Below the pieces are notes generated by a model, which was not told the DNA's origin, made no database searches, and saw only the letters and a program-made list of their open reading frames with translations. The translations under genes were made by a program, and so were the position numbers. 64,000 nt of DNA, taken from positions 4,792 through 68,791 of the IMG/VR virus record IMGVR_UViG_3300031965_000935. One strand, written 5' to 3'. This DNA is from a virus (Duplodnaviria > Caudoviricetes). The first letter of the stretch is position 1, and each line of letters starts with the position of its first letter. Positions 4,511-48,591 of the stretch are shown in pieces.

Positions 4511-5479
4511 ATGAGTAGCAAACTTTTAATCAACGAACCACCTTTACAGGTCTTGCCCTCTCTAGCCTGCCGGGTAGGACTTAATGAGGCTATTTTTTTG
4601 CAACAGCTACATTATTGGCTAGAGAATCCTAAAATTGGAAAATTGGTTGATCAAAACAAATGGATTCGGAATACAATTGACCAGTGGCAAGAAAACTTTC
4701 CTTTCTGGTCAGACAAGACAATAAAGAGGGTAATCGCATCTCTCAGAGAAAAAAGATTGGTCATTACCCGAAACGATCTAAACCAGTTGGGAATAGATAA
4801 TACAAACTGGTATACGATTGATTATAAAGTTTTGGTAGACCTGGCCGATGGGCCCAAAAGGGCTGTCCATGGGGACAAGTTGTCCCCATGGACGGGACAA
4901 GTTGTCCCTACCCATGGGGACAAGTTGTCCCCACCATTAACCATAGACTACCCAAAGAAAACAAACATATATATGCCGCCTAACGGCGGCGCAGGCAAAT
5001 TATCTGTTTTGGCCCCTGAATCGCAGCCAGAGAAATCCCCTAAAACTAATAGCCAAAAGCTGGAGCCTTCAGCCCAGGACGAGCTAATGGTTTTTGGTAT
5101 CTACGGCCATCAGCAAGCGCCAGCCGGGTCCTTTGCAGAAGAACTGGAAAACTCCGGCTGGCTATTACGCAGTAATACTGTAGCCGACGCCCTGGAAGCC
5201 TTCCTGAAGGCTGGCCGGGCGGCGGGTTTGGCCCTGCCCTTGCCCAACAGCGATTCACGGCGCAAGGACTGGGGTAAGTCCCTGGCCGGGCACATAGACG
5301 ACTGGGGCCTGGAATCGCTCAGAGGGGGCCGTTATCAGGCGGTTTTTAGCCTGGCAAAAGAGGGAGACTGGTTAAACAGAATAAGCCGGCCCGGGGCCGT
5401 AGACAAGGCCCTGGGCATGGTTGAAAATGAAATCGTCTCCTCGACCGTCAGGAATGAGGACGGCAGTTACAATTTTTAG
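4511..5479 (+). CDS. phage replication initiator (N-terminal wHTH)
   Basis: LLINE.PLQVLPSLA..VGLNEAIFLQQLHYW...FPFWS..TIKR..LR; central repeat region; precedes the helicase. Confidence 0.8.
   Translation: MSSKLLINEPPLQVLPSLACRVGLNEAIFLQQLHYWLENPKIGKLVDQNKWIRNTIDQWQENFPFWSDKTIKRVIASLREKRLVITRNDLNQLGIDNTNWYTIDYKVLVDLADGPKRAVHGDKLSPWTGQVVPTHGDKLSPPLTIDYPKKTNIYMPPNGGAGKLSVLAPESQPEKSPKTNSQKLEPSAQDELMVFGIYGHQQAPAGSFAEELENSGWLLRSNTVADALEAFLKAGRAAGLALPLPNSDSRRKDWGKSLAGHIDDWGLESLRGGRYQAVFSLAKEGDWLNRISRPGAVDKALGMVENEIVSSTVRNEDGSYNF
4867..4933. repeat. three palindromic GGGACAAGTTGTCCC units (putative origin iterons)
   Basis: ccatggggacaa-g-ttgtccccatgg (4867-4891) plus copies at 4894-4908 and 4912-4933. 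Confidence 0.75.
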
Positions 5480-24519: not shown

Positions 24520-26700
24520 ATGAAAAATAGTGCATACTGTGAAATTGACCTGACCATCACCAAGGCGGCAGTCCAGCCTAATGGCTCGATTCGCTGGCAG
24601 GCGGTCGCCTCAGACACCGGCCTGGACAGGGTAGAGGAAAGAACCTCTTTACCTCTTTTTCAGGACTGGATCGAGCGGGTTGAAAAGGGCCTGACAACTC
24701 CGTTTCTGCCCGATGCCCCCCGCATGCCGTTTCTGGGCCTATCTCACTATCCGGCCCTGGGCGGCCTGGGCGAAGCTGGGCCGACTATCCGTATGTACAT
24801 AGATGGCGACCGCTTCAAAGCGGATGGGAATTTCTATCAAGATGAATTTCATCCCCTTGGCCCCTCTCTTTTTGGGGCCATTGCCACCGAGCGGGCATTG
24901 CTCAAGCGAGGAGAAGCGGTTGATAATCCAATCCGAATTTCAGCCGCCTGGTGGGATTTGCAGCATGCCCACGGCGACTTTGTTTTTACGCGGCGGTCAC
25001 TGGCCGACCGCTGCCCGCTTTGTGACCAGGGGGTGAAAGATAAAGTATACCTGAAAGGGCAACTCGACCATTTTGCCGCTACCCGGGTCCCGATGAACCC
25101 CCGGACTGATTTAACGCTGGAGGAAAAGTCTATGAAAAAGATTACCCGCAAAGAGGATGCTGCCTCGATTATTGACGATGATCTCCTGGTTGAAGCTCTT
25201 GATAAAAAAGCCCGGCTAGTCGGCAAGGCAGATACCGATCTTGGCGTGGACCCGGCGGCCCTGGTCATCCGGGCGACCTCTTTAGGCGACTATTTGCGCC
25301 AAAAGAGGGAAGCCCTGGAATTGTCGCTAGAGGACGCGGCCGCCGAGCTAGATTTAGAGGCTGATGACCTGAGCGCCATTGAAGCCGGCAAAACCGTATT
25401 TCCGGCCAAAGAGGTCTTGAGCGCTCTGGCAAAGCTCTACAAAGTTGAGGCAGACGAGCTCATAGGCATGTTGCCTAAACCCAAACGTAAGGCAGACCTG
25501 GGCGAGCTCGGTTCGACTGAGACCTCGGCGAGCTCGGTCGAGCCGCTCACCGAAGTCACCCCTGAGCAATTCAACCCAGCCCAATTTGACAAACTTACCA
25601 AAAAGGCGGCCATGATGAAAACAGTGGACGGGGAGGATTATCCTGCCTCTGACTTCCTGGTAGTCGAGGACCCGGAAGGGCCGTCAACCTGGCATCTGCA
25701 GGTCAGGCGGCAGGGCGAAATTGACCACCGGCTCATGGGAGCGGCCTGGGCAGCCTTACACGGCGGCTACCGTGGCAACAAATACGAGGGGCCGGAAAAG
25801 GGGAAAGCCCTGGCCACTCTCAAGAAACTGTATAAGGCGGAAGAGATGCCAATGCCAAATGAAAAGAGCCTGGCTTCGACCCTTCCACAAGGTCAGGGCT
25901 CAGCCGAAAAAATGGGCAACGGCCATTTCGACAGGCTCAATGGCGAAGGAATGGAAGCCTATCCCGAGATGCCCAAGCCCCTGGGCGGTGCGCTTTCGAT
26001 TGATGAGGCTGAAACCTATCTCGATTCAAACGAGAAAATGAGGAGACTTTACAGTAACTGGGACATTTTCAACCAGGTGACAGGCAACATTATGGCTGAT
26101 GAGGAAATGGCCCCGGCCGATCGGATTAAGGCCCTGGGAACGGCGATTGAGGACTTTGGCGACCGGGTGGCGGCATTAAAGGCATCTCTAGCCGATGCGT
26201 TCCTCTTGACCCAGAGCGCCGCCGATGAATGGGTAACAGCCGATGGATATAACGAGGTAATAACTGAGACCCCCGTTCAAGCGGGGCACAACGAAGGGAG
26301 TAATATCATGAGCATTGAGACAACTGTAGATGGAATCGTGGCGAACGGGGCCTTATCCAAAGAGCAAAAGGCGGCCGCGATTCAAGAGGCTTTCCAGGGG
26401 TACGCTGAGACGGTCAAGGGCAAGCTGGACACCGAACCGGCCGCCCCGCCTGACCCGGCGGCTACACTTAAAGGGGCGCTGGCTGAAGCGTTAAGCCCAC
26501 TAACTGAGCAGCTTGGCCTGCTCATTGCCAAACTGGCTCAGCCTACCCAGGCGCAGCCTCAGATGACCCTGACTGCCTGGCCGCAACAAAAGTCCCTGGC
26601 CCCTGGCTATCAGCCGCAAATCGTTGATGATGGCCCTGCGAAAAAGATTATGAGCCCCCTGACAGCGGCCATCCGGCGTTCAGTGGGTATCGTAGAGTAG
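24520..26700 (+). CDS. prohead protease/scaffold polyprotein with an internal XRE HTH
   Basis: N-terminal ASDTGLDR protease-like region upstream of the capsid gene; LGDYLRQKRE...SLEDAA.ELDL....LSAIEAG; acidic C-terminal scaffold. Confidence 0.75.
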   Translation: MKNSAYCEIDLTITKAAVQPNGSIRWQAVASDTGLDRVEERTSLPLFQDWIERVEKGLTTPFLPDAPRMPFLGLSHYPALGGLGEAGPTIRMYIDGDRFKADGNFYQDEFHPLGPSLFGAIATERALLKRGEAVDNPIRISAAWWDLQHAHGDFVFTRRSLADRCPLCDQGVKDKVYLKGQLDHFAATRVPMNPRTDLTLEEKSMKKITRKEDAASIIDDDLLVEALDKKARLVGKADTDLGVDPAALVIRATSLGDYLRQKREALELSLEDAAAELDLEADDLSAIEAGKTVFPAKEVLSALAKLYKVEADELIGMLPKPKRKADLGELGSTETSASSVEPLTEVTPEQFNPAQFDKLTKKAAMMKTVDGEDYPASDFLVVEDPEGPSTWHLQVRRQGEIDHRLMGAAWAALHGGYRGNKYEGPEKGKALATLKKLYKAEEMPMPNEKSLASTLPQGQGSAEKMGNGHFDRLNGEGMEAYPEMPKPLGGALSIDEAETYLDSNEKMRRLYSNWDIFNQVTGNIMADEEMAPADRIKALGTAIEDFGDRVAALKASLADAFLLTQSAADEWVTADGYNEVITETPVQAGHNEGSNIMSIETTVDGIVANGALSKEQKAAAIQEAFQGYAETVKGKLDTEPAAPPDPAATLKGALAEALSPLTEQLGLLIAKLAQPTQAQPQMTLTAWPQQKSLAPGYQPQIVDDGPAKKIMSPLTAAIRRSVGIVE

Positions 26701-28932: not shown

Positions 28933-29918
28933 GCCTTATAACCGAAAAAGCCGATTTGAAGGGGCAAGTAAACCGCTATTTGACCTTATTATCAAGTCTT
29001 GAGTTTACCCCAGTGAGTCTCATAGAGGACTTGCAATACTTTAAGGGGCTGGTCGAGTTTGCGGATCCGAGTGAACTAGAATCGCTCTATGGGGACTGGT
29101 CAGAAATCAGGCCCAGAGATCAGCGATCTATGGCCTATATTCTGGACAGGGATATAAGCAAACTGCCTATGCCCCAAAAAAGCACATTTCAGGCGATTCT
29201 AGCCTTACGAGGGGGAAGTAACCCTGACAACTCTGGGCGCGCTGTCCAGTCAAGAAAAATGGTCTTGCGTCATCTGGCCGGCAAACACAACCAGAAAACG
29301 CATGGGACAGGCGGCGGCAAAGGAGCGGTCAGGAGCGTATCTCCTGAGCGCAAAGAACAGGGCAAAGCGTCAAAACAATCACAAGACGCCAAAAGTAAGA
29401 AGTTTGGCTGGCGGTCTAAGGCCATGGCAAACCTTGAAACAGAAATAGCCGGGGCCTCAAGAGAAAGCGCAGCCGCCTACGATAAGAACGGAAAAGAACT
29501 TTTTAAGATAGGCGGTAAACAGTCTGAGGTAAACTTTTCGGATGACCAATTGAGACAAATGAAAGGGGCAATTGTCACTCATAATCATCCTTCAACTATA
29601 AATGGTAAAAAATACCCGGACGGGGGGTCATTTTCTCCTAGCGACATCCAGCTTATGCTAAATACCGGGGCGGCGGAAGTAAGGGCCGTCACTGAAAATT
29701 ATATCTATCGGGTGCGCCCGAAACTGGTCGGCGGTCAGCCGGTCAGGAATGCCCTAAATTTTTTAGACCGGCGTAAGGCAAAGGTGCAATCCTCTTTATC
29801 AAAAGAGTATCAAAAGGGCAAGATGACTAAAGAGGCTTATGCTGTTGAATTTTGGCATCAACTCTGGCAAGGTGCGGCTGATGAGGGGCTATTAGAATAT
29901 GAAAGGATAGATCGCTAA
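28929..29918 (+). CDS. head-associated protein with C-terminal JAB/MPN-like domain (putative toxin)
   Basis: LRHLAGKHNQKTHG tag; E.AAAYD.NG...IVTHNHP...SFSPSDI. Confidence 0.7.
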   Translation: MSLITEKADLKGQVNRYLTLLSSLEFTPVSLIEDLQYFKGLVEFADPSELESLYGDWSEIRPRDQRSMAYILDRDISKLPMPQKSTFQAILALRGGSNPDNSGRAVQSRKMVLRHLAGKHNQKTHGTGGGKGAVRSVSPERKEQGKASKQSQDAKSKKFGWRSKAMANLETEIAGASRESAAAYDKNGKELFKIGGKQSEVNFSDDQLRQMKGAIVTHNHPSTINGKKYPDGGSFSPSDIQLMLNTGAAEVRAVTENYIYRVRPKLVGGQPVRNALNFLDRRKAKVQSSLSKEYQKGKMTKEAYAVEFWHQLWQGAADEGLLEYERIDR

Positions 29919-31024
29919 TGCCATTTACAATAGACAAAGAGCGGGCTGACATGTTTGAAGTCGAGCCTTTGGTTGACGAAACAATAACCAAAGCCGGTGC
30001 GCGTCATACCCGTACCGAGTTTGCAACCATTCAGGAGATACATGATACCATGGCCGCCTGGGGCGCAGTCTGTGAAGTGCCCCGGCCTTATCCGCTCGAC
30101 AAGCTCGCGGTCAAGGCCGGGGCCAAACATTCGCGGGCTGACCTGGCGGCGATTCAGACTATCCATGACTTGACCCTTGAGTTAGGCGCAAAATGCCCAC
30201 TCCCCCGGCTGTACCCGGTTGCCGAAGCGCAAAAGGCCCTGACCTACAAGGCAAACAACCAGGGGGCAATGGTCGCTTTATTCTTGCCGCCGGAGAAAGC
30301 GGGGCAATACGCATTGCCGGCCGGGATAGTCAAAGATAGAACTCCTCCCAATGAGTTACATTTGACCCTGGTCTATTTGGGTCAGTCTAATGAGCTCTCT
30401 GATGCCCAGAAACTGGGGCTACATCAGGGGATTATGGCTCTATCTCAACGGTGGGGGCCTATAGCGGGGCATATTAACGGGGTAGGGCGGTTTTGCAATG
30501 GGTCTAAGCCCGGTCAAGTGGATGATGAAGGGGACCCATTTTTTATCATTCCAGACCTGCCGGCCCTGGTCGAGTTTCGGGACGATCTGCTAACTAAGAT
30601 TGCCCTGACCGGGGTAAAGCCGTCGGCCGATCATGGTTACACTCCTCACATTACCCTGGCATATATCGAGCATGATGCCCCCAATCCCTTTAGCCAATTG
30701 GATAGAGCGGCGATAGAGTTTCCGCACCTGAGCCTGGTATTTGGCGAGGATCGCTATGATTACGCTTTCTTGGGCGGCCGGCCTTACGCGCAAAAAAGTC
30801 AGGCCGACGCGCCAAATTACCACCCGACCCATTGGGCCAGACGGTGTGAGAATTGTACTTTCTTTGGCGGCCAGGATGGGATAGATGACCGTTGCACCCG
30901 GTTTGATTTTGTAGCCGACCTGGATTATGTCTGTGATGACTGGTCGGCTCAGAATCCTGACGAGATTCCGGGTTTCGAGGGCAAGTCTTTGGCTGAAGTG
31001 GCAGCCCTGATCTTTAGTCAGTAG
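29918..31024 (+). CDS. multidomain protein: two KAGA(R/K)H repeats, 2H phosphoesterase, C-terminal four-Cys domain
   Basis: LHLTLVYLG and YTPHITLAY (two HxT motifs); Y...CENC.FF...C......VCD.W. Confidence 0.8.
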   Translation: MPFTIDKERADMFEVEPLVDETITKAGARHTRTEFATIQEIHDTMAAWGAVCEVPRPYPLDKLAVKAGAKHSRADLAAIQTIHDLTLELGAKCPLPRLYPVAEAQKALTYKANNQGAMVALFLPPEKAGQYALPAGIVKDRTPPNELHLTLVYLGQSNELSDAQKLGLHQGIMALSQRWGPIAGHINGVGRFCNGSKPGQVDDEGDPFFIIPDLPALVEFRDDLLTKIALTGVKPSADHGYTPHITLAYIEHDAPNPFSQLDRAAIEFPHLSLVFGEDRYDYAFLGGRPYAQKSQADAPNYHPTHWARRCENCTFFGGQDGIDDRCTRFDFVADLDYVCDDWSAQNPDEIPGFEGKSLAEVAALIFSQ

Positions 31025-32669: not shown

Positions 32670-33572
32670 ATGATCCGTTGCGTTTTGACGAGTATTTACT
32701 ACCCTATGGCCATTTTGAGATACTTTGAAGCGGCCTTGCGCCGGCGGCCTGATGTAGAGCTCTTTACTGTTGGCCCTTTCACCGGCCCGGCTATCCCCTG
32801 GAATGGCGGCATGACACTGCCCCAAAAATACGCCATTGCCCCTGATTTGCCCTTGGGCAACATTGTCCAGGGGAACGTTCCTATTAACTACATTGAAACC
32901 CTTTTACCCTGGTCGCCTGACCTCTGGCTGCAAGTAGACGCCGGCTTTTTCCTGAGCGGGCGGCCAAAAAGCGGCTTAAATGCCTTTGTGGGCACGGATC
33001 CACACGTGTTGGACTACAGCCTCCAGCGGGCGCTGGCCGACAAGTTTTTCTGTATGCAGGCATATTATGCCCAGGGGAGGGACGAATATCTACCCTATGC
33101 TTATGACCCCCTCTGGCATGCCCCAGAAAAGCAGCCTCGGCGGTATGATGTAGTTTTGCTTGGCCTACATTACGAGAATCGGAATCGTTTAGTGAGCGAA
33201 CTCAAACGTCAGGGGGTAAATGTGTTTTATGAACTGGGGCCTGTTTTTGACGAGGCGCGGGCCATTTATAACAGCGCTCCCCTGGGCCTCAATTGGTCGA
33301 GTTTGAATGACCTGACGGCCAGGGTCTTTGAGCTCCTGGGCATGGGCCGGCTGGCAGTGGTCAATCGCGTGCCCGACCTGGGGCAATTCTTTGAAGATGG
33401 CCGCGATCTGGCCGCCTTCGATTCGTTAGGTGAGGCAGTAGAAAAGGTTTTGCACTATCTGGCCCATCCAGAACAGGCGGCAGCCATTGCCCACCAGGGA
33501 AAGAAAACGGTCGCCCCACACACCTGGGACGACCGGGTTGAGCAAATATTCAAAACTTGCAAACTGGTTTAA
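32670..33572 (+). CDS. CgeB-like glycosyltransferase
   Basis: LPYAYDP, YDVVLLG, NR.RL, LN....RVFE.LG.G, F.DG.DL..F. Confidence 0.85.
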   Translation: MIRCVLTSIYYPMAILRYFEAALRRRPDVELFTVGPFTGPAIPWNGGMTLPQKYAIAPDLPLGNIVQGNVPINYIETLLPWSPDLWLQVDAGFFLSGRPKSGLNAFVGTDPHVLDYSLQRALADKFFCMQAYYAQGRDEYLPYAYDPLWHAPEKQPRRYDVVLLGLHYENRNRLVSELKRQGVNVFYELGPVFDEARAIYNSAPLGLNWSSLNDLTARVFELLGMGRLAVVNRVPDLGQFFEDGRDLAAFDSLGEAVEKVLHYLAHPEQAAAIAHQGKKTVAPHTWDDRVEQIFKTCKLV

Positions 33573-35794: not shown

Positions 35795-36196
35795 TTATTC
35801 TTCTGGTCTGAAGTCAATAAAGATATAAGCCCGGCGACCAGTTTCAGAGGCACGTAGTTGTAAAACATGTCCAGCCATAACCGGAGAAAATAATATCTCT
35901 ACAATAACGTTTTCCTCTGAGGCAAACCCCTTGAGGGCATCCATTAAATACCTTGGGTTAATTGCAAAACAATCTATTAGTCTGGCCTTAGCCATTAGCT
36001 CAAGGAATTTTCCGATCTGGATTCCCCGCTCAACCTCTGGGACATCCAGGTCGCTGGCAACATGTAAACGATGGCCGTCCGTTCCCAGAAGATAACCCCC
36101 ATCCTCTGGCGATTCGATAAGTTGGTTAAATGGAGATTCCGGGTCTGGCAGAGCAGCTAACTTGCACCAATCTTTATCACTAATCATTTTCTTCAT
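35795..36196 (-). CDS. beta-sliding-clamp-like fragment
   Basis: LLGTDGHRLHV and AINPRYLMDALK resemble DnaN motifs; only 133 aa. Confidence 0.5.
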   Translation of the reverse strand: MKKMISDKDWCKLAALPDPESPFNQLIESPEDGGYLLGTDGHRLHVASDLDVPEVERGIQIGKFLELMAKARLIDCFAINPRYLMDALKGFASEENVIVEILFSPVMAGHVLQLRASETGRRAYIFIDFRPEE

Positions 36197-36947
36197 CCTC
36201 TCTGATTTTTAGTCTGAGGCCGGCGGCCTCTATGATGACTTCGTCCCCTTCAGTCAGGGTCGCCCACTGAGCAACAGTCAGGCTGAGGACAATTGGGCGG
36301 CCCGATTCCGGCTCGCCCAGGTCAGGGATGTCGATTCCTGACAGATCAACTTCTCCGGCTTGCCAGTCCCGGAGCGTCTCTTTTGCCGCCTCGGTCGTTA
36401 AGTCCCCGGCGGCATAAAAGGCCGCCTGCTCACCCTCTGGGAGTTTGACCACCATCCGGGCGGCGGTCAGGACCATTTCGCCAGACTCCAGGGCATCCCG
36501 GAGTGGGGAAATTAGGGCCATGAGGCTTAACCGCTGGCTGACATTGCCCTGGGTAATGCCAAGCCGCCGGGCGATTACTTTTTGAGTGTAACCCAGGTCA
36601 ATGAGGTCTGAGATTAGCCGCGCTTCGACTATGGGGGAGGGTGAGCCACTCATATTCAAAGCCAGGGCCGACCAGGCGGCCGCCTCCTGGTCAGCATCCT
36701 CAATAATCGCCTCGACCTCAGTTACCCCGGCGGCGGTCAGGTTCGCTACCCGGCGGCGACCGTTGATAATCTCGTAGTGCCCATCAGGTAACTGTCTAAC
36801 TCGGATCGGGTCAATCTGGCCCAGTTCAGTCAGGCTGACCTGCCGGGCTTTGCTGATTGGGGCGGGGACGCTGTTGATAGCTGAAATCGCAATCCGGGTT
36901 AGTTGACGTGGAGTAGTCATTAGTTTCAAGTCGGTTATGGTCATCAT
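36180..36947 (-). CDS. ParB/Srx-family protein with HTH
   Basis: IDPIRVR....YEIINGRRR..N, N......EAR, YTQ..IA.RLG..Q..VS.RL.L. Confidence 0.8.
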   Translation of the reverse strand: MMTITDLKLMTTPRQLTRIAISAINSVPAPISKARQVSLTELGQIDPIRVRQLPDGHYEIINGRRRVANLTAAGVTEVEAIIEDADQEAAAWSALALNMSGSPSPIVEARLISDLIDLGYTQKVIARRLGITQGNVSQRLSLMALISPLRDALESGEMVLTAARMVVKLPEGEQAAFYAAGDLTTEAAKETLRDWQAGEVDLSGIDIPDLGEPESGRPIVLSLTVAQWATLTEGDEVIIEAAGLRLKIREDEEND

Positions 36948-38951: not shown

Positions 38952-39324
38952 CGATCTGCCCCGATTTAACATTGTTCACCACCTGGGCGAACCCAACACA
39001 GCCGAATTTGAGGGCGTTAAAATCAGCCGCCAGAAAGCCCTTTTTATAAGGGAATGGGGACGATTCGTGCCTTGTGCGCCGTATGATAATCACTTTGTAT
39101 TTGAAACCCCCGCAAAAGCCAAAAAAATAGGTATGAGCGAATACATGTGTACCTGCGGGTCAGCGGCGGTCGTGGCCAGGCCGGAAAAAGAGACAACCCG
39201 CATGTTTGTTTGTCTTTTTCACGCCACCTACGGCGCACACCAGACTTCGGTCATCAATAAGGCTGATTTTGGACAAGACCTGCCCCAGATTATCATGCCA
39301 AAGGCTAAAAAATGGCTGACCTGA
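38944..39324 (+). CDS. hypothetical protein with Cys/His cluster
   Basis: MNDDLPRF...CTCG...CLFH; coupled start. Confidence 0.55.
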   Translation: MNDDLPRFNIVHHLGEPNTAEFEGVKISRQKALFIREWGRFVPCAPYDNHFVFETPAKAKKIGMSEYMCTCGSAAVVARPEKETTRMFVCLFHATYGAHQTSVINKADFGQDLPQIIMPKAKKWLT

Positions 39325-40430
39325 AGATTGACGTATATTGCAATGATGGCTCACCTATCGGAATAGATTGGCGGCATATCTATGAGGGACTGGGGATAGG
39401 CGGAGCGGAACTCGCCTTGTTCACCTGGGCTGAATTTATGGCCCGGCGCGGTCATCAGGTCAGGATTTACAACGACCCAGCAGAACCCGGGACCTATCAG
39501 GGCATAGAATTTTTATCCCAGAATAAATTTGACCCCTCGGAAAACAGGGATGTTTTCATAGCCTGGCGCTCGCCCAATCGGTTTATACAGAAAGCACGCG
39601 GCTACCGGATTCATTGGTCAACCGACCAGTATACCAGCGGGAATTTTGCCACTGATATTGTGCCTTATGTTGACAAGATTGTCTGTATTTCCCCGTTTCA
39701 TCGAAAATACTATCTGGAGCGATACGGGCCGCCGGAGACAAAGATCGTCTACCTCGATCTAGGAGTGCGTCTTGAAGATTACACGATGCAGCCAAAGAAA
39801 GTGGCTTGTCGGTGTATTTTTTGCAGCGTGCCCGACCGGGGACTGCAGCTTGTCCCTAATATCTGGTCGGTCATCAAAGAGGCAGTACCCGACGCTTCCC
39901 TGGTTATCACTTCAGATTATCGCCTTTGGGGGTCGCAAAATCCGCTCAATTATCAGCATCGGTTAAATATGGTCGGGCAAGAGGGGACTGTTTACTTGGG
40001 GGCGATTCCTCGGCCTAGACTCATTGCCTTACAATCCGAGGCTCAGGTACACTTGTATCCATGTACCTACGACGAATTATTCTGCATCAGTGCCGCCGAG
40101 TGTCAGGTCGCCGGGGCCTATCCGGTTACAAGCGCCATGGGTGCGCTAGAAACAACCAATGAGTTTGGCATAACTTTCACTGGCCACCCGGAATCTCCGG
40201 CCTGGCAAAAGGAATATACGGCGACAGTCATTGAGTTACTGTTAAACCAAGAAAGCCTGACCGCCAGGGCTGAAGCCTGTATGGAACGCGCCCGGGTGCG
40301 CTTCAGTTGGGATAAAATTTGCGATAAATGGGAAAAGATGCTGAATGGTTCGGCAGGCTCACCACAAGGTGGGGCGGCCGCCGATTCGCCCGCCCGGAAG
40401 CGGGTTACTAAAAAGGTTAAGGTTGTATGA
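39312..40430 (+). CDS. GT4 glycosyltransferase
   Basis: GGAE, SVPDRGL, ELFCISAAECQ.AG. Confidence 0.9.
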   Translation: MADLKIDVYCNDGSPIGIDWRHIYEGLGIGGAELALFTWAEFMARRGHQVRIYNDPAEPGTYQGIEFLSQNKFDPSENRDVFIAWRSPNRFIQKARGYRIHWSTDQYTSGNFATDIVPYVDKIVCISPFHRKYYLERYGPPETKIVYLDLGVRLEDYTMQPKKVACRCIFCSVPDRGLQLVPNIWSVIKEAVPDASLVITSDYRLWGSQNPLNYQHRLNMVGQEGTVYLGAIPRPRLIALQSEAQVHLYPCTYDELFCISAAECQVAGAYPVTSAMGALETTNEFGITFTGHPESPAWQKEYTATVIELLLNQESLTARAEACMERARVRFSWDKICDKWEKMLNGSAGSPQGGAAADSPARKRVTKKVKVV

Positions 40431-41596
40431 TCATCTACATCAGCGACTTTGACCTGGGCGGCTCAGGCTATAGTAATATCGGCCAGCAACTTTGCCAGGA
40501 ACTGGTTTTCCGCCATGACCTGGGAGTCATCGCCCTGGGCCTGGGATACAATGGCCAGGAGCATAGTTACCCATTTTCTATTGTCCCTGTCCCTCACCTC
40601 TCCCATGTGCCCCATATGGTAAAGCGCCTGGTAGACTACGGCGCGCCGATCGAGGCTATTGTCGTAGCCCTAGACATCATACAGCAAGAGGCTATGATTA
40701 AGGCCCTCAACATTCCTAGTAAAATCCCCTACCTGGCCCTATTCCCTCTCGAATCGGGCCCGCTCTGCCAGCCCTGGGCTATCAATCTGATGCGCGCTAA
40801 CGGATGCCTAGTTATGTCTGAGTTTGCTGTCAAAGACGTTGCCCTGGCCGGCCTTGAGGCTGATTTTATCCCTCTGGGCGTAGGGGACATCTGGCGGCCG
40901 CCCACGGTTGAAGAAAAAGTCACGATACGTCAGGGCCTGGGTATGTCGCCGAATACTTTTAATATCCTGACCGTGGCCGATAACCAGGAACGAAAGAATC
41001 TCGATGCGGCCGCCAAGATGGTGGCCGGATTATCAATAAAACCGCTCAGTTATGCGCCTAACGGATTTGTACTCAAGAAAGAAGTCGTCCGGGATGTGTC
41101 CTGGACGCTTGTTACCCGCCTCGATTCCCCGGTCGGCTGGAAGTTAGACGACCTCTTTATGAGGTACGGGATCATGGATAGAGTAGCCATTTACAACCGG
41201 GGCATGCCGGTTGACAAGCTCTGGTTACTCTATGCGGCGGCTGACTGCTTTCTGTTGACCTCAAAGGCGGAAGGACTGGCCCTGCCACTGCTTGAGGCCA
41301 TGGCCTGCCGCGTGACTACGGTCGGCACAAACCATGCTGCTATTGCTGAGCATCTGGACGACCGCCTGGGGTATCTCATAGAACCTGAATATGGGCATAT
41401 AGACCCATTCGGCAACGGCTGGCGGGTTTGGGCCTCGGCAGAGGACGGCATCCGAAAGCTAACCTGGCTATATGAGCAGGGGCCAGATGAAACTATGCTC
41501 GACCGGGCGCAGGCATACATCCGGGCGCGCACCTGGGAAAAAGCGGGGCAGGTGCTGGTCGAGGCAATCAGGAAGGTGAAAAATGGGAATACTTGA
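40427..41596 (+). CDS. GT4 glycosyltransferase
   Basis: RKNL, YAAADCFLLTS.AEGLALPLLEAMAC. Confidence 0.9.
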   Translation: MIIYISDFDLGGSGYSNIGQQLCQELVFRHDLGVIALGLGYNGQEHSYPFSIVPVPHLSHVPHMVKRLVDYGAPIEAIVVALDIIQQEAMIKALNIPSKIPYLALFPLESGPLCQPWAINLMRANGCLVMSEFAVKDVALAGLEADFIPLGVGDIWRPPTVEEKVTIRQGLGMSPNTFNILTVADNQERKNLDAAAKMVAGLSIKPLSYAPNGFVLKKEVVRDVSWTLVTRLDSPVGWKLDDLFMRYGIMDRVAIYNRGMPVDKLWLLYAAADCFLLTSKAEGLALPLLEAMACRVTTVGTNHAAIAEHLDDRLGYLIEPEYGHIDPFGNGWRVWASAEDGIRKLTWLYEQGPDETMLDRAQAYIRARTWEKAGQVLVEAIRKVKNGNT

Positions 41597-42008
41597 ATCT
41601 GCAAAAATTGATGAGACTTTAGAGGCGTTTATTGATGGTATGCTACCTGGTGATGAAATGGATATGCTGGTCGCTCAGGCATTAGGGCAGGCTGATTTTA
41701 CATACCTGTCATATAGTTCAAACCTTCAAGCCGCCTGGAAAATCATTGAGTGGTGGCTTTCCCATCCTTTATCCGGCGGCGACCTATTTATTGAATGGTG
41801 GACTGATGGCGAATGGTTTATATGTGACAAAAATCTTATCACGCGGAAGGAGGGTATATCTACTTTTCTGATAGCCCGATCTAACACAGTGGACATGGAA
41901 ACTGATGAACTGCCATCATTGCCCCTGGCCCTATGCCGGCTTTTTCTGAAAAAAGCCTACCAGATAGGTCTATTGTCAACTGAAGAAATGAAGGCAAAGG
42001 CGCGATGA
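41583..42008 (+). CDS. phage ABA-sandwich-like protein
   Basis: MD.LVA, YSSNLQAAW.IIE, PLALCR..L. Confidence 0.5.
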   Translation: MGILESAKIDETLEAFIDGMLPGDEMDMLVAQALGQADFTYLSYSSNLQAAWKIIEWWLSHPLSGGDLFIEWWTDGEWFICDKNLITRKEGISTFLIARSNTVDMETDELPSLPLALCRLFLKKAYQIGLLSTEEMKAKAR

Positions 42009-42274
42009 AATACTATAAAAAATATAAAATCGAGGTCACAGAACAGGAACTGGTAAAAACTATCTGTGACCGTTGCGGGAGCGCAATACCAGAACTGAGA
42101 ACGTATGATCTCAGAGAATTTTCTTTGAGTTTTGCCGTTGGGGACACTTTTCCTGACAATGGCGAAAAAGACGGCTGGGAAGTCGAAGACTTGTGCGATG
42201 TCTGCATAGGCTGGCTCAAGAATCTGCTCGAAGAAAATGCCGTCCGTATAACCAAAGTCCATGCATCCTGGTGA
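42005..42274 (+). CDS. zinc-binding hypothetical protein
   Basis: CDRCG...DLCDVC. Confidence 0.55.
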   Translation: MKYYKKYKIEVTEQELVKTICDRCGSAIPELRTYDLREFSLSFAVGDTFPDNGEKDGWEVEDLCDVCIGWLKNLLEENAVRITKVHASW

Positions 42275-42281
42275 GGAAAAG

Positions 42282-42464
42282 ATGAACCAAAAAGAGCAAC
42301 ATCTATTATCTAACATTGCGAGTTTCTATTATATCATTTCTCTGAGTGCTTTAATCGCAAGCCTGATTTTTTTTGTTTGGATCGACTGGCGGCTTGGGCT
42401 TGCTATTCTTTTATTATGGCTTCATCATACCACCCTTAAAAGAGCGATGTTATTGGATCCGTAA
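42282..42464 (+). CDS. small two-TM protein
   Basis: Hydrophobic ORF; ATG behind GAGG. Confidence 0.45.
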   Translation: MNQKEQHLLSNIASFYYIISLSALIASLIFFVWIDWRLGLAILLLWLHHTTLKRAMLLDP

Positions 42465-42465
42465 A

Positions 42466-43368
42466 ATGGCCAAGCGTAAACGTCTGCCAGCGCTACCTGA
42501 AGAAGTATCAGAGCTGGATATAGTCATCCCGGTCTATGGCCGGCCTGATCTGCTTAAAGAGTGCCTGGCTGCTATCCCCCTGGCCGGCTTCGATGTCAAC
42601 TATAAGCTATTTCTGGTCGATGATAAGAGCCCAGAGCCTGGACCGCTAGAAATCCTCTATAATAGCCTAAATAGTCAGGCCAGGATTATCAGGAATCCGC
42701 AAAATATGGGCTTTCCGGCGGCCGCCAACAGGGGCGCGGCGCAGGGGCATGCGCCGGCGATTCTATTCCTAAATTCGGACGTGGTTTTGAAGCCCAATGC
42801 ACTTCGCATTATGCTCAACAGCCTCTGGTCGAGCCAGATCGAACGCGGGATTTTTGACCCGCCAGACATAAAAGGAGTCGGCATTGTAGCCCCTAAGTTG
42901 CTTTTCCCGGAGGGTGGCCATGACCAAAATAGGCCCGGCGGCAAAGTCCAACATGTGGGCATTGCCTTTAATGGGGCCGGTAAACCTTTTCATGCTCTTA
43001 TTGGCTGGTCAAGCGACAATCCAAAGGTCAACATAAAGCGGTCGCTTCAGGCGGTCAGCGGGGCCTGCTTGCTGATAAGGCGCGCCCTCTTTGACCAAAT
43101 ATGGCGCGGCTATCAGGCCGTGGGCGACCCTTCGGCCGGCGGCTTTAACGAGGTCTATGGTCTGGGGACTTATGAGGATATAGAATTATCATTCGCTGTG
43201 CGCTCACTGGGGTATCAAGTCCTTGTCGAACCCAGGGCCGTAGGGTATCATTACGTAGGGGGCTCGGCGGCAGCCCAACCGGGGGGTTATCCCCTGGGGC
43301 GCAATGAAAATATCTTCAGGGCGCGGTGTGGGCAGCTCATCCTCTGGGACGAGTGGGCGGTGTGGTAA
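42466..43368 (+). CDS. GT2 glycosyltransferase
   Basis: IVIPVYG, LVDDKS, N.GFPAAANRG, LNSDV, AVSGACLL, YEDIE. Confidence 0.9.
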   Translation: MAKRKRLPALPEEVSELDIVIPVYGRPDLLKECLAAIPLAGFDVNYKLFLVDDKSPEPGPLEILYNSLNSQARIIRNPQNMGFPAAANRGAAQGHAPAILFLNSDVVLKPNALRIMLNSLWSSQIERGIFDPPDIKGVGIVAPKLLFPEGGHDQNRPGGKVQHVGIAFNGAGKPFHALIGWSSDNPKVNIKRSLQAVSGACLLIRRALFDQIWRGYQAVGDPSAGGFNEVYGLGTYEDIELSFAVRSLGYQVLVEPRAVGYHYVGGSAAAQPGGYPLGRNENIFRARCGQLILWDEWAVW

Positions 43369-45632: not shown

Positions 45633-45875
45633 ATGAAGTTCACCCGCAAGAAACCAAAACCGAAAATTGCTACTTGTGAACAGCGCCTGGCGCTGCTGGC
45701 TCAGGAACTTGGGGTCGCTGGGGCTGTGGTACTGGTCAATGACTACGGATTTACCAGAGAGCAGGCCAATGAGTGGCTCGGTAAGATGGTCGAGCAGGCC
45801 CGGACGAATCGGCTCATGCTGGCGGCTAACACCGTCCTGGCTACCCATGACCTCAAGAAACAAGGGAAAATATGA
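45633..45875 (+). CDS. hypothetical protein
   Basis: GAGGA RBS; coupled to the next gene. Confidence 0.55.
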   Translation: MKFTRKKPKPKIATCEQRLALLAQELGVAGAVVLVNDYGFTREQANEWLGKMVEQARTNRLMLAANTVLATHDLKKQGKI

Positions 45876-46243
45876 TTGCCGGACTGCATCTCAAGGTAGA
45901 CATTATTGGCATCGTCAACCTAGTTGATGACACAATAGGCGGCGCGCGCACCACGGGGACGGTACGTCATGCGGACATTCAAGGCGTCTTGACCCCCCGG
46001 CGGCCAAGTCAGGCCGCTTTAGAGGCGGGGCTAGAAACGGATGCCATCTACGATTTTACAACGCGGGCGCAAAACGTTACCCTGAATGAGCGGGATGAAA
46101 TAGAGGTGACATGGCCGCCGACCAGCGCCCTCTACGGATTGCGATTCCGGGTGACGGGGGTCCAGCCGGGCCGGGGGCGGGCCAGGTATGCGCCTATGCA
46201 TGCCACAACTAGCCGGATCCGGGCCAGCCGGAGTAGCCAATGA
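45872..46243 (+). CDS. head closure/stopper protein (putative)
   Basis: DDTIGG, V..DIQGVL, ERDEIEV, FRVTGVQ. Confidence 0.6.
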   Translation: MIAGLHLKVDIIGIVNLVDDTIGGARTTGTVRHADIQGVLTPRRPSQAALEAGLETDAIYDFTTRAQNVTLNERDEIEVTWPPTSALYGLRFRVTGVQPGRGRARYAPMHATTSRIRASRSSQ

Positions 46244-46249
46244 GGAAAC

Positions 46250-46278
46250 AAAAAGGACTCTCAGAGAGAGTCCTTTTT
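46250..46278. terminator. bidirectional terminator
   Basis: aaaaaggactctc/gagtccttttt. Confidence 0.75.
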
Positions 46279-46294
46279 ACCTCTTGTCTAAAGA

Positions 46295-46615
46295 TCAATT
46301 TTTCCCGAAATAGACCTCTTTACTAAACTGGTTGAAGTTGCCCCATTCTAAAACGTCATACGGCCCCAGAGTGCTCGTATTGATCTGGTAGCACCCCCAA
46401 TCGTTGATCTGAGCATAACTCGGAAACTCTTCTTTGCCTGTCCACTCTTGAATAATCTGGTGGCCTTGCTCCTCAGAAATTGGAAACACGGCCCAAGAAT
46501 CTAGCGGCTGCGAGGTAGTCTGGCGACTGTTGTATTCGTCATAAGAAAAGATGATCGCCAGTTCCTCATTGTCACTAATTATACATTTTACCAATTCTAC
46601 TTTGTTGATAACCAT
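46295..46615 (-). CDS. hypothetical protein (leftward cassette 4)
   Basis: AGGGAG RBS. Confidence 0.6.
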   Translation of the reverse strand: MVINKVELVKCIISDNEELAIIFSYDEYNSRQTTSQPLDSWAVFPISEEQGHQIIQEWTGKEEFPSYAQINDWGCYQINTSTLGPYDVLEWGNFNQFSKEVYFGKN

Positions 46616-46649
46616 GGTTTTGTCTCCCTGTTGAAAAGTTTTGAATCAG

Positions 46650-46725
46650 TGGAGGCGGGGGGAGTTGAACCCCCATACTGGCGGCGGCGCTTTGGCTTTT
46701 GCCGCCAGGCGAACCTTCCGCCCCC
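46650..46725 (-). ncRNA. 76-nt tRNA-like RNA resembling the tmRNA tRNA-like domain (Ala identity)
   Basis: GGGGGCG/CGCCTCC-A acceptor with G3-U70; GAAGGTTCGCC stemless D region; TGGCGGC/GCCGCCA helix; GGGGG-TTCAACT-CCCCC T arm. Confidence 0.7.
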
Positions 46726-46760
46726 TTTTAAGCCTGGATTCCTGGGGGATTAACTTTCTG

Positions 46761-47012
46761 TTAGAAACCTGATGGCTCTAGCACTTCTTCATCATCGAGC
46801 GACATCACTACCAGCGAGAATCCTGATCGCGAAATTCCGTCTGCCGCATCTTGAGCCTCGAGGATGGTAAGGAACCATTCCCCTGTCCAAGCCTCTTTTT
46901 CTACATTGAATATTCCATACTTTGCGCCCTCTGGCGCATCAGGTACCTGCACCTTCCAATCCCGCCAATCGGCGGCTATTTCTGCCATCAGATTAGGTGT
47001 GACTATCATCAT
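46761..47012 (-). CDS. acidic hypothetical protein
   Basis: 83-aa ORF. Confidence 0.55.
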   Translation of the reverse strand: MMIVTPNLMAEIAADWRDWKVQVPDAPEGAKYGIFNVEKEAWTGEWFLTILEAQDAADGISRSGFSLVVMSLDDEEVLEPSGF

Positions 47013-47372
47013 TTAATCCCCCTCCCTGCTTTTGGCCCAGGCCCTGGGGTCTGAAATCCCCTGAAACCTGACTTTGTGATAAGCCATCAGAGCGGCCTTT
47101 TCTTCTGCTGACAAATCGGCCACCTTGAGGCTCAGTAACTGATTAGCCGCCAGGCGGTCAAGTTTGGCCGCCACGCGATAATCGCCTTCGATGGCGGCGG
47201 CAAATTCGACATATCTTTCATAATCAACGCCAAGGTATTCGAGGTTGGATTCGTCCTCCGGGCCTTCTGGCTCCGGGAAAAGCCGAAGGGCTTCTTCTAG
47301 TTCTAGTTTTCTAAGTTTCAATTCGGTTGCTTTCGAGATTTTATTTAACATTAGAGGTTTCCTTTCAATCAC
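47013..47372 (-). CDS. hypothetical protein
   Basis: 119-aa ORF. Confidence 0.55.
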   Translation of the reverse strand: MIERKPLMLNKISKATELKLRKLELEEALRLFPEPEGPEDESNLEYLGVDYERYVEFAAAIEGDYRVAAKLDRLAANQLLSLKVADLSAEEKAALMAYHKVRFQGISDPRAWAKSREGD

Positions 47373-47868
47373 TCATGCGGTCGTAGCAATCAGGGCAAGA
47401 CGATCCCTGGCTGGTAGACATGACCAGGTTTTGAGAGATAGTGTGTCCGCAGGCGCAACGCACCGTTTTGGCGGGTTTTTGGCGCGCTTTCTGGGCGTCA
47501 ATTTTCCGCTGGTGGGCCTCGCCGTATTCGGCGTCAAATTTGGCGCGAGTGGTGGTGTCCCACCCGTTGCGGTCACTCTCGTAGGAGGCGTAACCGCGAT
47601 AGTAACCGAGATTGTAGGTATTTTCGGTTCGTTCCTCTGAGTAATCCAGGCCGCGTGCTTTATCCACGCGCCCTTGCCAGATGCCCAGTTGATATTCGCG
47701 GGTTTGTGTCATCTGACCCAGGATGTAATCCCGCTTGAGGATTCCCCAGGGCTTGTGTTCTTTTTTGCCGCGAGCCTGGAAGTGCTCATCGGAGGGCATT
47801 TCGGGCGAGCCAAATTTTTGCCACTTTGCTTCTTGTTTTTTGTTTGCCTGGTACATTTTCCGCGCCAT
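47365..47868 (-). CDS. hypothetical protein with C-terminal zinc ribbon
   Basis: CACGH...CPDC; first gene after the promoter. Confidence 0.65.
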   Translation of the reverse strand: MARKMYQANKKQEAKWQKFGSPEMPSDEHFQARGKKEHKPWGILKRDYILGQMTQTREYQLGIWQGRVDKARGLDYSEERTENTYNLGYYRGYASYESDRNGWDTTTRAKFDAEYGEAHQRKIDAQKARQKPAKTVRCACGHTISQNLVMSTSQGSSCPDCYDRMSD

Positions 47869-47890
47869 TAGTTTTCACCTTTATATCTCA

Positions 47891-47974
47891 AATTTACTAT
47901 CAAGAACATTATACTACGAATAGTAATATCTGTCAAGGGTTTTAAGGAAACTCATAGGCGAGTTTTCCGCCAAG
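47891..47974 (-). promoter_or_regulatory. second copy of the 85-bp promoter block
   Basis: TTGACA(47936-31)-17-TATAAT(47913-08). Confidence 0.85.
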
Positions 47975-48006
47975 TTTGCTTGGTTTCTCAGAGATTGGGT
48001 GGTGGC

Positions 48007-48070
48007 TTGAAAAAATAACCGGGTAATGCTATAATCAAACGCGAAGGGCTGCAACCGCAGCCCTTTTTTT
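48007..48070 (+). promoter_or_regulatory. late tail-operon promoter with immediate terminator-like hairpin
   Basis: TTGAAA-17-TATAAT; same 45 bp as 23755-23799. Confidence 0.8.
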
Positions 48071-48141
48071 ATTGATGTCGAGCCTGCCGACTTCGGCGAG
48101 CTCAGACTTCGGTGAGCTCAGTCGAACCGTCGAGCCGAAAC

Positions 48142-48591
48142 ATGGTCGAATCTAGCGGTAAAGTTTCATCTGGACAAGTCCGAAACCTGGCCTTAGCCGG
48201 CTTAGATCGCGGCCTCATTCTTTCCGGTCACCTGGTCGCGCAACGGGCCACCCAGCGTGCGCCCATTGACACCGGGAGGTTGAAGCGGTCTATTACCTCT
48301 GGCCGGCCCTATTCGGTCAGGCAATTGCGGGTAGTGGACGTGGGGACTAATGTTGAGTACGCCCGGATTCAGGAGTTTGGCGGCAAGACCGAGCCTCACG
48401 AAATTACCCCAAGATTCAAGAAGGCTTTGGCTTTTACCGTGGGCGGCATAAATGTCGTTGTCAAACGCATCCCCATGCACCCTGGTTCAAATATCCCGGC
48501 CCATCCCTACCTGCGCCCGGCTTTAGCAGCCTCAAAAAGAGAAATCAGAACGCTCATTGTCCGCTCAATTGTAGGGAGCATCAACTCATGA
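48142..48591 (+). CDS. HK97 gp10-like tail completion protein
   Basis: APIDTGRLKRSI, VGTNVEYA..QEFG, HPG..I.A.PYLRPA; start uncertain. Confidence 0.85.
   Translation: MVESSGKVSSGQVRNLALAGLDRGLILSGHLVAQRATQRAPIDTGRLKRSITSGRPYSVRQLRVVDVGTNVEYARIQEFGGKTEPHEITPRFKKALAFTVGGINVVVKRIPMHPGSNIPAHPYLRPALAASKREIRTLIVRSIVGSINS

Follow-up and report, generated by a model that had tools for sequence, protein, structure and literature searches.

The window analysed here is a stretch of 64,000 nucleotides, positions 4,792 to 68,791 of the IMG/VR virus record IMGVR_UViG_3300031965_000935. The record comes from a soil metagenome, is estimated to be ~82% complete, and belongs to a tailed phage. The sequencing runs listed were all DNA from soil metagenomes, one of them probably the source sample, with none of RNA. 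On the minus strand, at 46725..46650, lies a 76-nt RNA gene embedded in a reverse-strand cassette of four open reading frames (ORFs), which itself sits inside the forward-strand head-tail joining (neck) module. Judged from its sequence, it is very probably a genuine phage gene for a transfer-messenger RNA (tmRNA) reduced to its tRNA-like domain (TLD), lacking tag and pseudoknots and carrying a short P2 hairpin. Trans-translation is the main bacterial ribosome-rescue pathway and a drug target. A virus encoding just that head of tmRNA to which SmpB and AlaRS bind would have in it a natural inhibitor or hijacker of this pathway.

The reverse complement of 46650-46725 is the sequence quoted in the initial annotation and runs from G1 (46725) to the discriminator, the A73 equivalent (46650). 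From 5' to 3' on the minus strand, the acceptor 5' strand GGGGGCG (46725-46719) leads into an 11-nt D-loop analogue, GAAGGUUCGCC (46718-46708). The P2 5' strand UGGCGGC (46707-46701), a 15-nt tip AAAAGCCAAAGCGCC (46700-46686) and the P2 3' strand GCCGCCA (46685-46679) follow. A GUAU linker (46678-46675) connects P2 to the T arm, GGGGG-UUCAACU-CCCCC (46674-46658), after which come the acceptor 3' strand CGCCUCC (46657-46651) and the discriminator A. All seven acceptor positions are paired (G1-C72, G2-C71, G3-U70, G4-C69, G5-C68, C6-G67 and G7-C66), and the sequence determinants for AlaRS are visible in G3-U70, A73 and G2-C71. The P2 hairpin has eight base pairs, the seven of UGGCGGC/GCCGCCA plus one C-G pair, closing the 15-nt tip. 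Neither the sequence nor its fold contains a D stem, an anticodon arm or a 7-nt anticodon loop. As the bases after the discriminator are CUG, CCA is not encoded. Our reading of the sequence agrees with the layout first proposed for this RNA, with its G3-U70 pair, discriminator A and T arm but no D stem, 7-nt anticodon loop or encoded CCA.

The minimum free energy fold (-41.1 kcal/mol, z -2.65) returns the acceptor stem, the P2 hairpin and the T arm, and only two of 200 shuffled sequences folded as well. In place of the D and anticodon arms of a tRNA, the fold has one long hairpin. With just 15 nt between the P2 strands, the RNA has no resume codon, tag frame or in-frame stop. The pseudoknots PK1-PK4 are absent as well, and the RNA is too short to hold them. 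A tiny frame starting at GCC in the tip was considered as a message and rejected; it runs through the 3' half and stops only past the mature end.

The Rfam tmRNA model RF00023 aligns to the window RNA globally (model positions 1-374) with 42.1 bits and an E value of 1.9e-15 in a 601-nt search. Positions 1-29 and 332-374 of the model are matched and the 302 central positions are deleted. When the whole 68.8-kb record was searched with RF00023, the RNA was the sole such match (E 5.1e-17). No Rfam family reached its gathering threshold. The RNA has the features of a tRNA-like domain, namely a 7-bp acceptor stem with G3-U70, A73 and a T arm of the GGGUUCRANUCCC type. ARAGORN called no tRNA, no tmRNA and no tag peptide in the whole window. 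An ordinary tRNA such as tRNA-Ala was rejected on the zero ARAGORN calls and because tmRNA is the best member of the tRNA clan on this stretch. Overlapping or adjoining Rfam matches to GP_knot2, mascRNA, Tymo tRNA-like, Plastid-ycf2 and tmRNA_permuted were far below their cut-offs and were put down to chance or generic tRNA-likeness.

To find relatives, IMG/VR was scanned with two degenerate patterns. These consisted of UUCG(A/C)C, 25-86 nt, a T arm, an acceptor 3' strand and A, after which a matching 5' acceptor strand was required. A covariance model, R1, was then built from 58 compact tmRNA heads and run on all fetched loci. All family figures refer to relatives among the matches listed, and the counts are lower bounds. 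Pattern scans and R1 together gave at least 70 distinct TLD-only relatives falling into at least 64 clusters at ~90% similarity. The 70 sequences measure 60-124 nt (median 78.5) up to the discriminator, and CCA is encoded in 27 of them and not encoded in 43. R1 separates the TLD-only class (above ~50 bits) from ordinary tRNAs (at most ~40 bits). The window RNA scores 67.5 bits, a match by construction as its sequence is in the R1 seed. At three loci, ARAGORN identified full or permuted (two-piece) tmRNA genes, L093 1143-1555, L022 3600-3940 and L134 477-841, with R1 scores of 44-55 bits on their tRNA-like parts.

The family covaries. In the R1-fitted alignment of the 70 sequences, standard pairs fill 93.6% of the pair cells compared with 68.5% in shuffles. 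The covariation score is 0.60, against 0.08-0.14 when the partners are slid by 1-3 columns. The P2 helix was not used in selection and all eight of its pairs have changed on both sides, with one pair being UA in 22, GC in 20, CG in 14 and AU in 11 sequences. Together with the end-to-end RF00023 alignment and an already known phage representative, mycobacteriophage DS6A, this covarying family upholds the initial reading of the RNA as a tmRNA tRNA-like domain without a message.

A tRNA gene lies within 1 kb of the TLD in 24 of 73 candidate loci and anywhere on the fetched locus in 30, as called by ARAGORN. Where a tRNA strand is listed it is, with one exception, the strand of the TLD, and some of the arrays contain 20-25 tRNAs. 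Such a same-strand tRNA neighbourhood is the behaviour to be expected of an expressed RNA gene processed by RNase P. An all-against-all comparison of ORFs within 2.5 kb of the 70 TLD genes found no shared protein partner, with no family present in more than five loci. The recurrent neighbour families are terminase, capsid, methylase and similar. A pattern made from the exact halves of the window RNA had no match in viral contigs. Neither megablast with the 6-kb neighbourhood nor blastn with the window RNA matched any cultured phage. In bacterial genomes a GCC-type compact pattern found 52 loci, all with at most 46 bits against R1; these were only 3' parts of real tmRNAs and none was a compact copy.

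TLD-only RNAs are present in cultured phages. Papers on the tmRNA Website list a "Mycobacterium phage DS6A (TLD only)" as tmID 11587 / Phage__Mycobacterium.9 (PMC4131195, Hudson, Lau and Williams 2014; PMC11915505). R1, which does not have DS6A in its seed, located this RNA at JN698994 28478-28560 with 62.5 bits (E 7.5e-15). It starts 10 nt after the gp33 stop codon, and its GenBank record has no annotation for it. A BLAST search with a consensus-like member, and then R1, revealed further unannotated copies, also outside the seed, in the Streptomyces phages LuckySocke (L228 2496-2576), Shaeky (L229 2491-2572) and BRock (L230 2492-2572). They score 64.6-71.7 bits and occupy gaps in tRNA arrays. 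The LuckySocke and BRock copies lie near RNA ligase genes.

The window RNA is a variant at its core. Its D-loop analogue is one base short of the consensus and ends in GCC rather than GAC (GGUUCGCC vs GGAUUCGAC), and the linker 5' of the T arm is GUAU where the consensus has GGAC. Across the 70-sequence alignment, the last base of the D-loop analogue (the A20 equivalent; window 46708) covaries with the first linker base (window 46677). A goes with G in 58 of the 62 sequences ending in A, and C goes with U in five of the eight ending in C. The five with C and U are the window RNA and a separate clade made up of L019, L026, L075 and L096. Their co-occurrence points to a non-canonical pair at the P2 base whose two members are exchanged together, though the sample is small and the four clade members are related. 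The GCC...GUAU core is, on this alignment, the rarer form in the family. The tip AAAAGCCAAAGCGCC fits a motif common to many members, AAAGCC followed by a few bases and then G-Y-GC or CGG, and the helices adjoining it differ completely between family members.

A syntenic relative was found in another IMG/VR phage, L002. Its adaptor is 66% identical to that of the window phage, and it has the same flanking genes, including the tail-completion family, with a reverse cassette at the same place. The proteins of the two cassettes share nothing, and the ORF after the L002 TLD is unrelated to ORF 4 of the window. At L002 10071..9947 (minus strand) is a 125-nt tmRNA-like RNA scoring 70.6 bits with RF00023, above the Rfam cut-off. 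Its GGAUUCGAC and GGAC motifs are canonical, CCA is encoded, and 55 nt are inserted between the two P2 strands. Its P2 helix, CAGAUCGUUG/CAACGAUCUG, has no sequence in common with the window P2 and is still perfectly paired. Within the 55-nt insert are short frames that end in UAA or UAG, such as GGC CCG UUG UUC UAA. By its sequence the L002 RNA could be an intermediate between the full and the TLD-only forms, or a micro-tag tmRNA. ARAGORN called no tRNA or tmRNA on L002-L004.

The cassette that carries the RNA gene starts at a putative sigma-70-type promoter, TTGACA-17-TATAAT (47908..47936, minus strand), that matches the consensus at 12 of 12 positions and lies ~40 nt upstream of the first ORF. 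ORF 1 (47365..47868, minus strand, 167 aa) has no match in Pfam, PHROGs or NCBIfam; homologues with 50% identity are found in two viral contigs, both without a TLD. ORF 2 (47013..47372, minus strand, 119 aa) has only a sub-threshold Pfam match at chance level. ORF 3 (46761..47012, minus strand, 83 aa) stops 35 nt upstream of the RNA 5' end. ORF 4 (46295..46615, minus strand, 106 aa) begins with an ATG 34 nt past the RNA, has GGGAGA as a ribosome-binding site of its own, and ends 52 nt from a converging plus-strand gene. None of the four belongs to a known family, and searches of Pfam, PHROGs, NCBIfam and the ESM Atlas gave no function for any of them. Between ORF 3 and ORF 4 there is no promoter or terminator of the RNA gene's own. 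The initial annotation placed the RNA in an early cassette under a consensus promoter. The promoter is there, and the cassette, a reverse-strand insert in the neck module, may or may not be an early region.

The cassette is bounded on the left by a conserved phage gene of 123 aa (45872..46243, plus strand), 65% identical to L002 9165-9548. On the right is a tail-completion/HK97 gp10-like gene (48112..48591, plus strand) that matches PHROG 5 (E 3e-15) and Pfam PF04883 above its cut-off. In the relative L289 (position 1776) the homologue of the 123-aa gene abuts the tail-completion gene without a reverse cassette. Another relative, L286 (1165-3100), has a reverse cassette of small ORFs at the junction without a TLD RNA. 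In the window (46243-48112) and in L002 (9548-12698), the same junction holds unrelated protein sets and a TLD RNA each. The junction being empty in one phage, occupied by small ORFs in another and by cassettes in the window and L002, it is an insertion hot spot for moron-like accessory cassettes. Five metagenome relatives of the 123-aa flanking gene had no TLD. A divergent near-consensus promoter, TTGAAA-17-TATAAT with a TG extension (window 48007-48066, plus strand), stands back to back with the cassette promoter. A strong hairpin and a T tract come directly after it, just upstream of the tail-completion gene.

Elsewhere, the record encodes a lambda-type large terminase, portal, tape measure, head-tail adaptor and tail-completion proteins (PHROG/Pfam). 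The named relatives of its large terminase subunit (TerL), from metagenome-assembled genomes of Chloroflexota, Anaerolineae and Planctomycetaceae, share only ~48% identity with it. No SmpB is encoded in the record, ~82% complete as it is, nor was there a match there to a tyrosine integrase (Phage_integrase) or serine recombinase. A ParB-like protein (window 36180-36947, minus strand) and a 726-aa helix-turn-helix protein (24520-26700, plus strand) with no integrase in the record make a plasmid-like or non-integrating lifestyle possible. A 368-aa protein (29918-31024, plus strand) has a 2H phosphoesterase/2'-5' RNA ligase (LigT-like) domain, with PF13563 above its cut-off and TIGR02258 weak, and may act in RNA-end repair or the cleavage of cyclic-nucleotide signals. 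Sugar-modification genes are unusually many for a phage (20922-23475, minus strand; 32670-33572 and 39312-43368, plus strand). Among them are an aminotransferase, an RmlD-like reductase and at least four glycosyltransferases, and the set points to DNA, the virion or the host surface being modified.

The explanation we favor overall, with a probability of roughly 0.55, is a genuine TLD-only tmRNA gene that acts on host SmpB and trans-translation. Starting at the consensus promoter, host RNA polymerase would make the RNA within a polycistronic transcript. RNase P would cut its 5' end, the 3' end would be trimmed, and the host CCA-adding enzyme would add CCA. It would then bind host SmpB through its elbow, made of the D-loop analogue, the T loop and the base of P2. 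With no SmpB in the record, any SmpB partner would be the host's. G3-U70 and A73 make alanylation by AlaRS and binding by EF-Tu probable. SmpB would be titrated and stalled ribosomes possibly occupied, so that tagging by host tmRNA and the decay of non-stop mRNAs by tmRNA-SmpB would be blocked or diverted.

Lacking a resume or stop codon, the window RNA cannot complete trans-translation. A DS6A-like molecule, whether chargeable or not, strongly inhibits E. coli tmRNA, perhaps by titrating SmpB, according to PMC4131195 and PMC11915505 as they cite Mao et al. 2009. We infer that sequestration of SmpB by the window RNA would agree with this result on a similar TLD-only molecule. Given the missing codons and an inhibition in E. 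coli that does not depend on charging, competition for SmpB is the most likely net effect. We would give about even odds to a net effect in which host tmRNA loses SmpB, and perhaps stalled ribosomes, to the RNA as a competitor, with tagging and tmRNA-dependent non-stop mRNA decay suppressed.

Several points weigh against this explanation. The 42.1 bits of the window RNA are below the RF00023 gathering score of 47. The invariance in the family of U70, C71, C72, A73, the T loop and UUCG(A/C)C is partly built in, as these were in the search pattern, and that of G1-G3 is partly built in through the 5' acceptor filter. G3-U70 and A73 are also found in members identified without the pattern, namely L002 by synteny, DS6A from the literature and the three Streptomyces phages by BLAST. 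The core GGUUCGCC and the GUAU linker deviate at the proposed SmpB docking region, so affinity for SmpB could be weaker or altered. Because CCA is not encoded, activity would depend on host 3' processing. The inhibition in E. coli was obtained with a similar molecule and would carry over to the window RNA only by analogy. Any gain that a phage would have from blocking trans-translation is conjectural, and the large tRNA arrays beside many members would fit a pro-translation role equally well.

One such role is productive rescue without a tag, which we regard as unlikely though the best of the other explanations. Here the alanylated TLD with SmpB and EF-Tu would take the nascent chain on stalled ribosomes, and ArfA/RF2, ArfB or peptidyl-tRNA hydrolase would resolve the product. 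Ribosomes stalled on broken mRNAs during infection would be recycled for phage translation and the proteins would not be marked for proteolysis. It is consistent with all the alanine-identity elements being kept and with tmRNA truncated to the TLD accepting peptidyl transfer in vitro, as PMC3895274 reports citing Shimizu and Ueda 2006. About a third of the members are at or beside phage tRNA genes, including the arrays of 20-25, or near RNA ligase genes. Moreover, tmRNAs without a coding sequence (CDS) persist with SmpB in jakobid mitochondria and some plastids (PMC11915505). However, the RNA alone cannot release a peptide without a stop codon, and the effect in E. coli, in the form in which those papers cite it, is an inhibition of tmRNA independent of charging.

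It is less probable still that the RNA is a decoy or trigger in phage-host conflict, binding to or sensed by factors that recognize tmRNA or the acceptor end, such as defences with SmpB-like domains, RNase R or toxins directed at the 3' CCA. Defence systems of CoCoNuT type II and III-A have SmpB-like domains for which tmRNA binding is predicted (PMC11090510), an anti-CRISPR is supported by t(m)RNA fragments that bind RNase R (PMC11662646), and a moron-like cassette at an insertion hot spot is a typical site for anti-defence genes. All of this is circumstantial, and no recognizable defence or anti-defence gene is linked to the RNA across the family. The initial annotation offered bait for tRNA-targeting defences as one role. 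This found no support, since without an anticodon loop the RNA cannot bait anticodon nucleases and no defence genes are linked to it in the family.

Slightly more doubtful again is a function in processing only, with the RNA as tRNA-like punctuation that recruits RNase P and 3' nucleases between ORF 3 and ORF 4 and is functionless once excised. The position between same-strand ORFs, 35 nt from one and 34 nt from the other and without a separate promoter or terminator, would suit such a signal, as would the start of the DS6A copy 10 nt past the gp33 stop. RNase P needs just the acceptor/T-arm minihelix, though. The D-loop analogue, the GAC...GGAC-type base of P2, the A-rich tip and the alanine identity would be superfluous, yet they are kept in at least 64 divergent clusters. 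A sizeable minority of the members is also found beside tRNA genes, where punctuation is not needed.

Last, integration into tmRNA genes is common and their 3' ends are often found in phages (PMC9004378, PMC11915505), but a non-functional relic such as an attP-type copy or mis-excised fragment of host ssrA is very improbable, because the RNA has both the 5' acceptor strand and the D-loop analogue, joined to the 3' half by a P2 helix that covaries across the family, the ~82% complete record has no tyrosine integrase or serine recombinase match, and the bacterial scan yielded only 3' parts of real tmRNAs.

Whatever the effect of the TLD-only RNA on host SmpB, the class is common in uncultivated phages, with at least 70 sequences from two narrow scans. 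The unannotated copies in cultured Streptomyces phages can be used for experiments. Standard annotation is blind to the class: ARAGORN is silent, the window member stays under the Rfam gathering score and those GenBank records that were checked are blank. A dedicated covariance model would bring this recurrent RNA gene into phage annotation. To what was known the window adds an RNA with a rare core variant and no encoded CCA, in a promoter-driven reverse cassette at a hot spot where a related phage has a different and longer TLD RNA. It is possible, though less likely than not, that TLD-only tmRNAs are widespread uncatalogued phage accessory RNAs countering the host tmRNA-SmpB axis or defences with SmpB-like domains. 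In that case the GCC...GUAU core, which arose at least twice in separate lineages, would be the mark of co-evolution with one particular partner, be it SmpB or an SmpB-like protein. Controlling ribosome rescue would be a general strategy of infecting phages, and not the curiosity of one mycobacteriophage.

Compared with bacterial tmRNA (ssrA, RF00023), the window RNA has in common the acceptor with alanine identity, the GG.UUCG.C D-loop analogue, the T arm and P2. It is without the ~300-nt body of ssrA with its resume codon, tag frame, stop and PK1-PK4, and therefore cannot perform the messenger half of trans-translation. Full-length tmRNAs are known from the mycobacteriophage Bxz1 group, Bacillus phage G and the Streptomyces BE-cluster phages, and two-piece forms from pelagiphages and Melnitz (PMC4131195, PMC9004378, PMC5764925). 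Like the TLD-only RNAs, they are phage-encoded and often near phage tRNA genes. The full-length forms keep the tag frame and pseudoknots and are detected by ARAGORN, whereas the TLD-only form is missed by ARAGORN and blank in the GenBank records checked. CDS-less tmRNAs are encoded in jakobid mitochondria and, at ~65 bp, in Mallomonadaceae plastids (PMC11915505). Both they and the window RNA are natural reductions to the tRNA-like domain without a tag. The organellar forms are the organelle's own, vertically inherited rescue RNA and work with an imported SmpB; the window RNA is a viral accessory gene in a cell that presumably has a full tmRNA.

The closest known system is DS6A. Full-text literature searches found no paper describing the TLD-only class as widespread; in the literature searched, DS6A was the one phage example, and a single experiment, made in E. 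coli, recorded inhibition. DS6A infects M. tuberculosis and is of a different lineage from the window phage, a soil siphovirus whose host is probably of another phylum. The two RNAs have low primary-sequence similarity outside the conserved motifs. DS6A has a GAC...G-A-C core, while the window RNA has the GCC...GUAU core, a UUCAACU T loop and a reverse-strand, promoter-driven cassette. Both are phage-borne with the same order of elements, G3-U70 and A73, and have no tag ORF and no pseudoknots. Neither encodes CCA, with DS6A ending in ACUA and the window RNA in ACUG. Both have an A-rich bulge and a small G+C hairpin at the P2 tip, both lie between same-strand protein genes, and the one model, R1, recognizes both. 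Like DS6A, the window RNA is phage-encoded, compact (about 60-130 nt for the type), and has the elements in standard order with nothing else. It is a member of the phage TLD-only tmRNA class of which DS6A is the type, and not a categorically new RNA.

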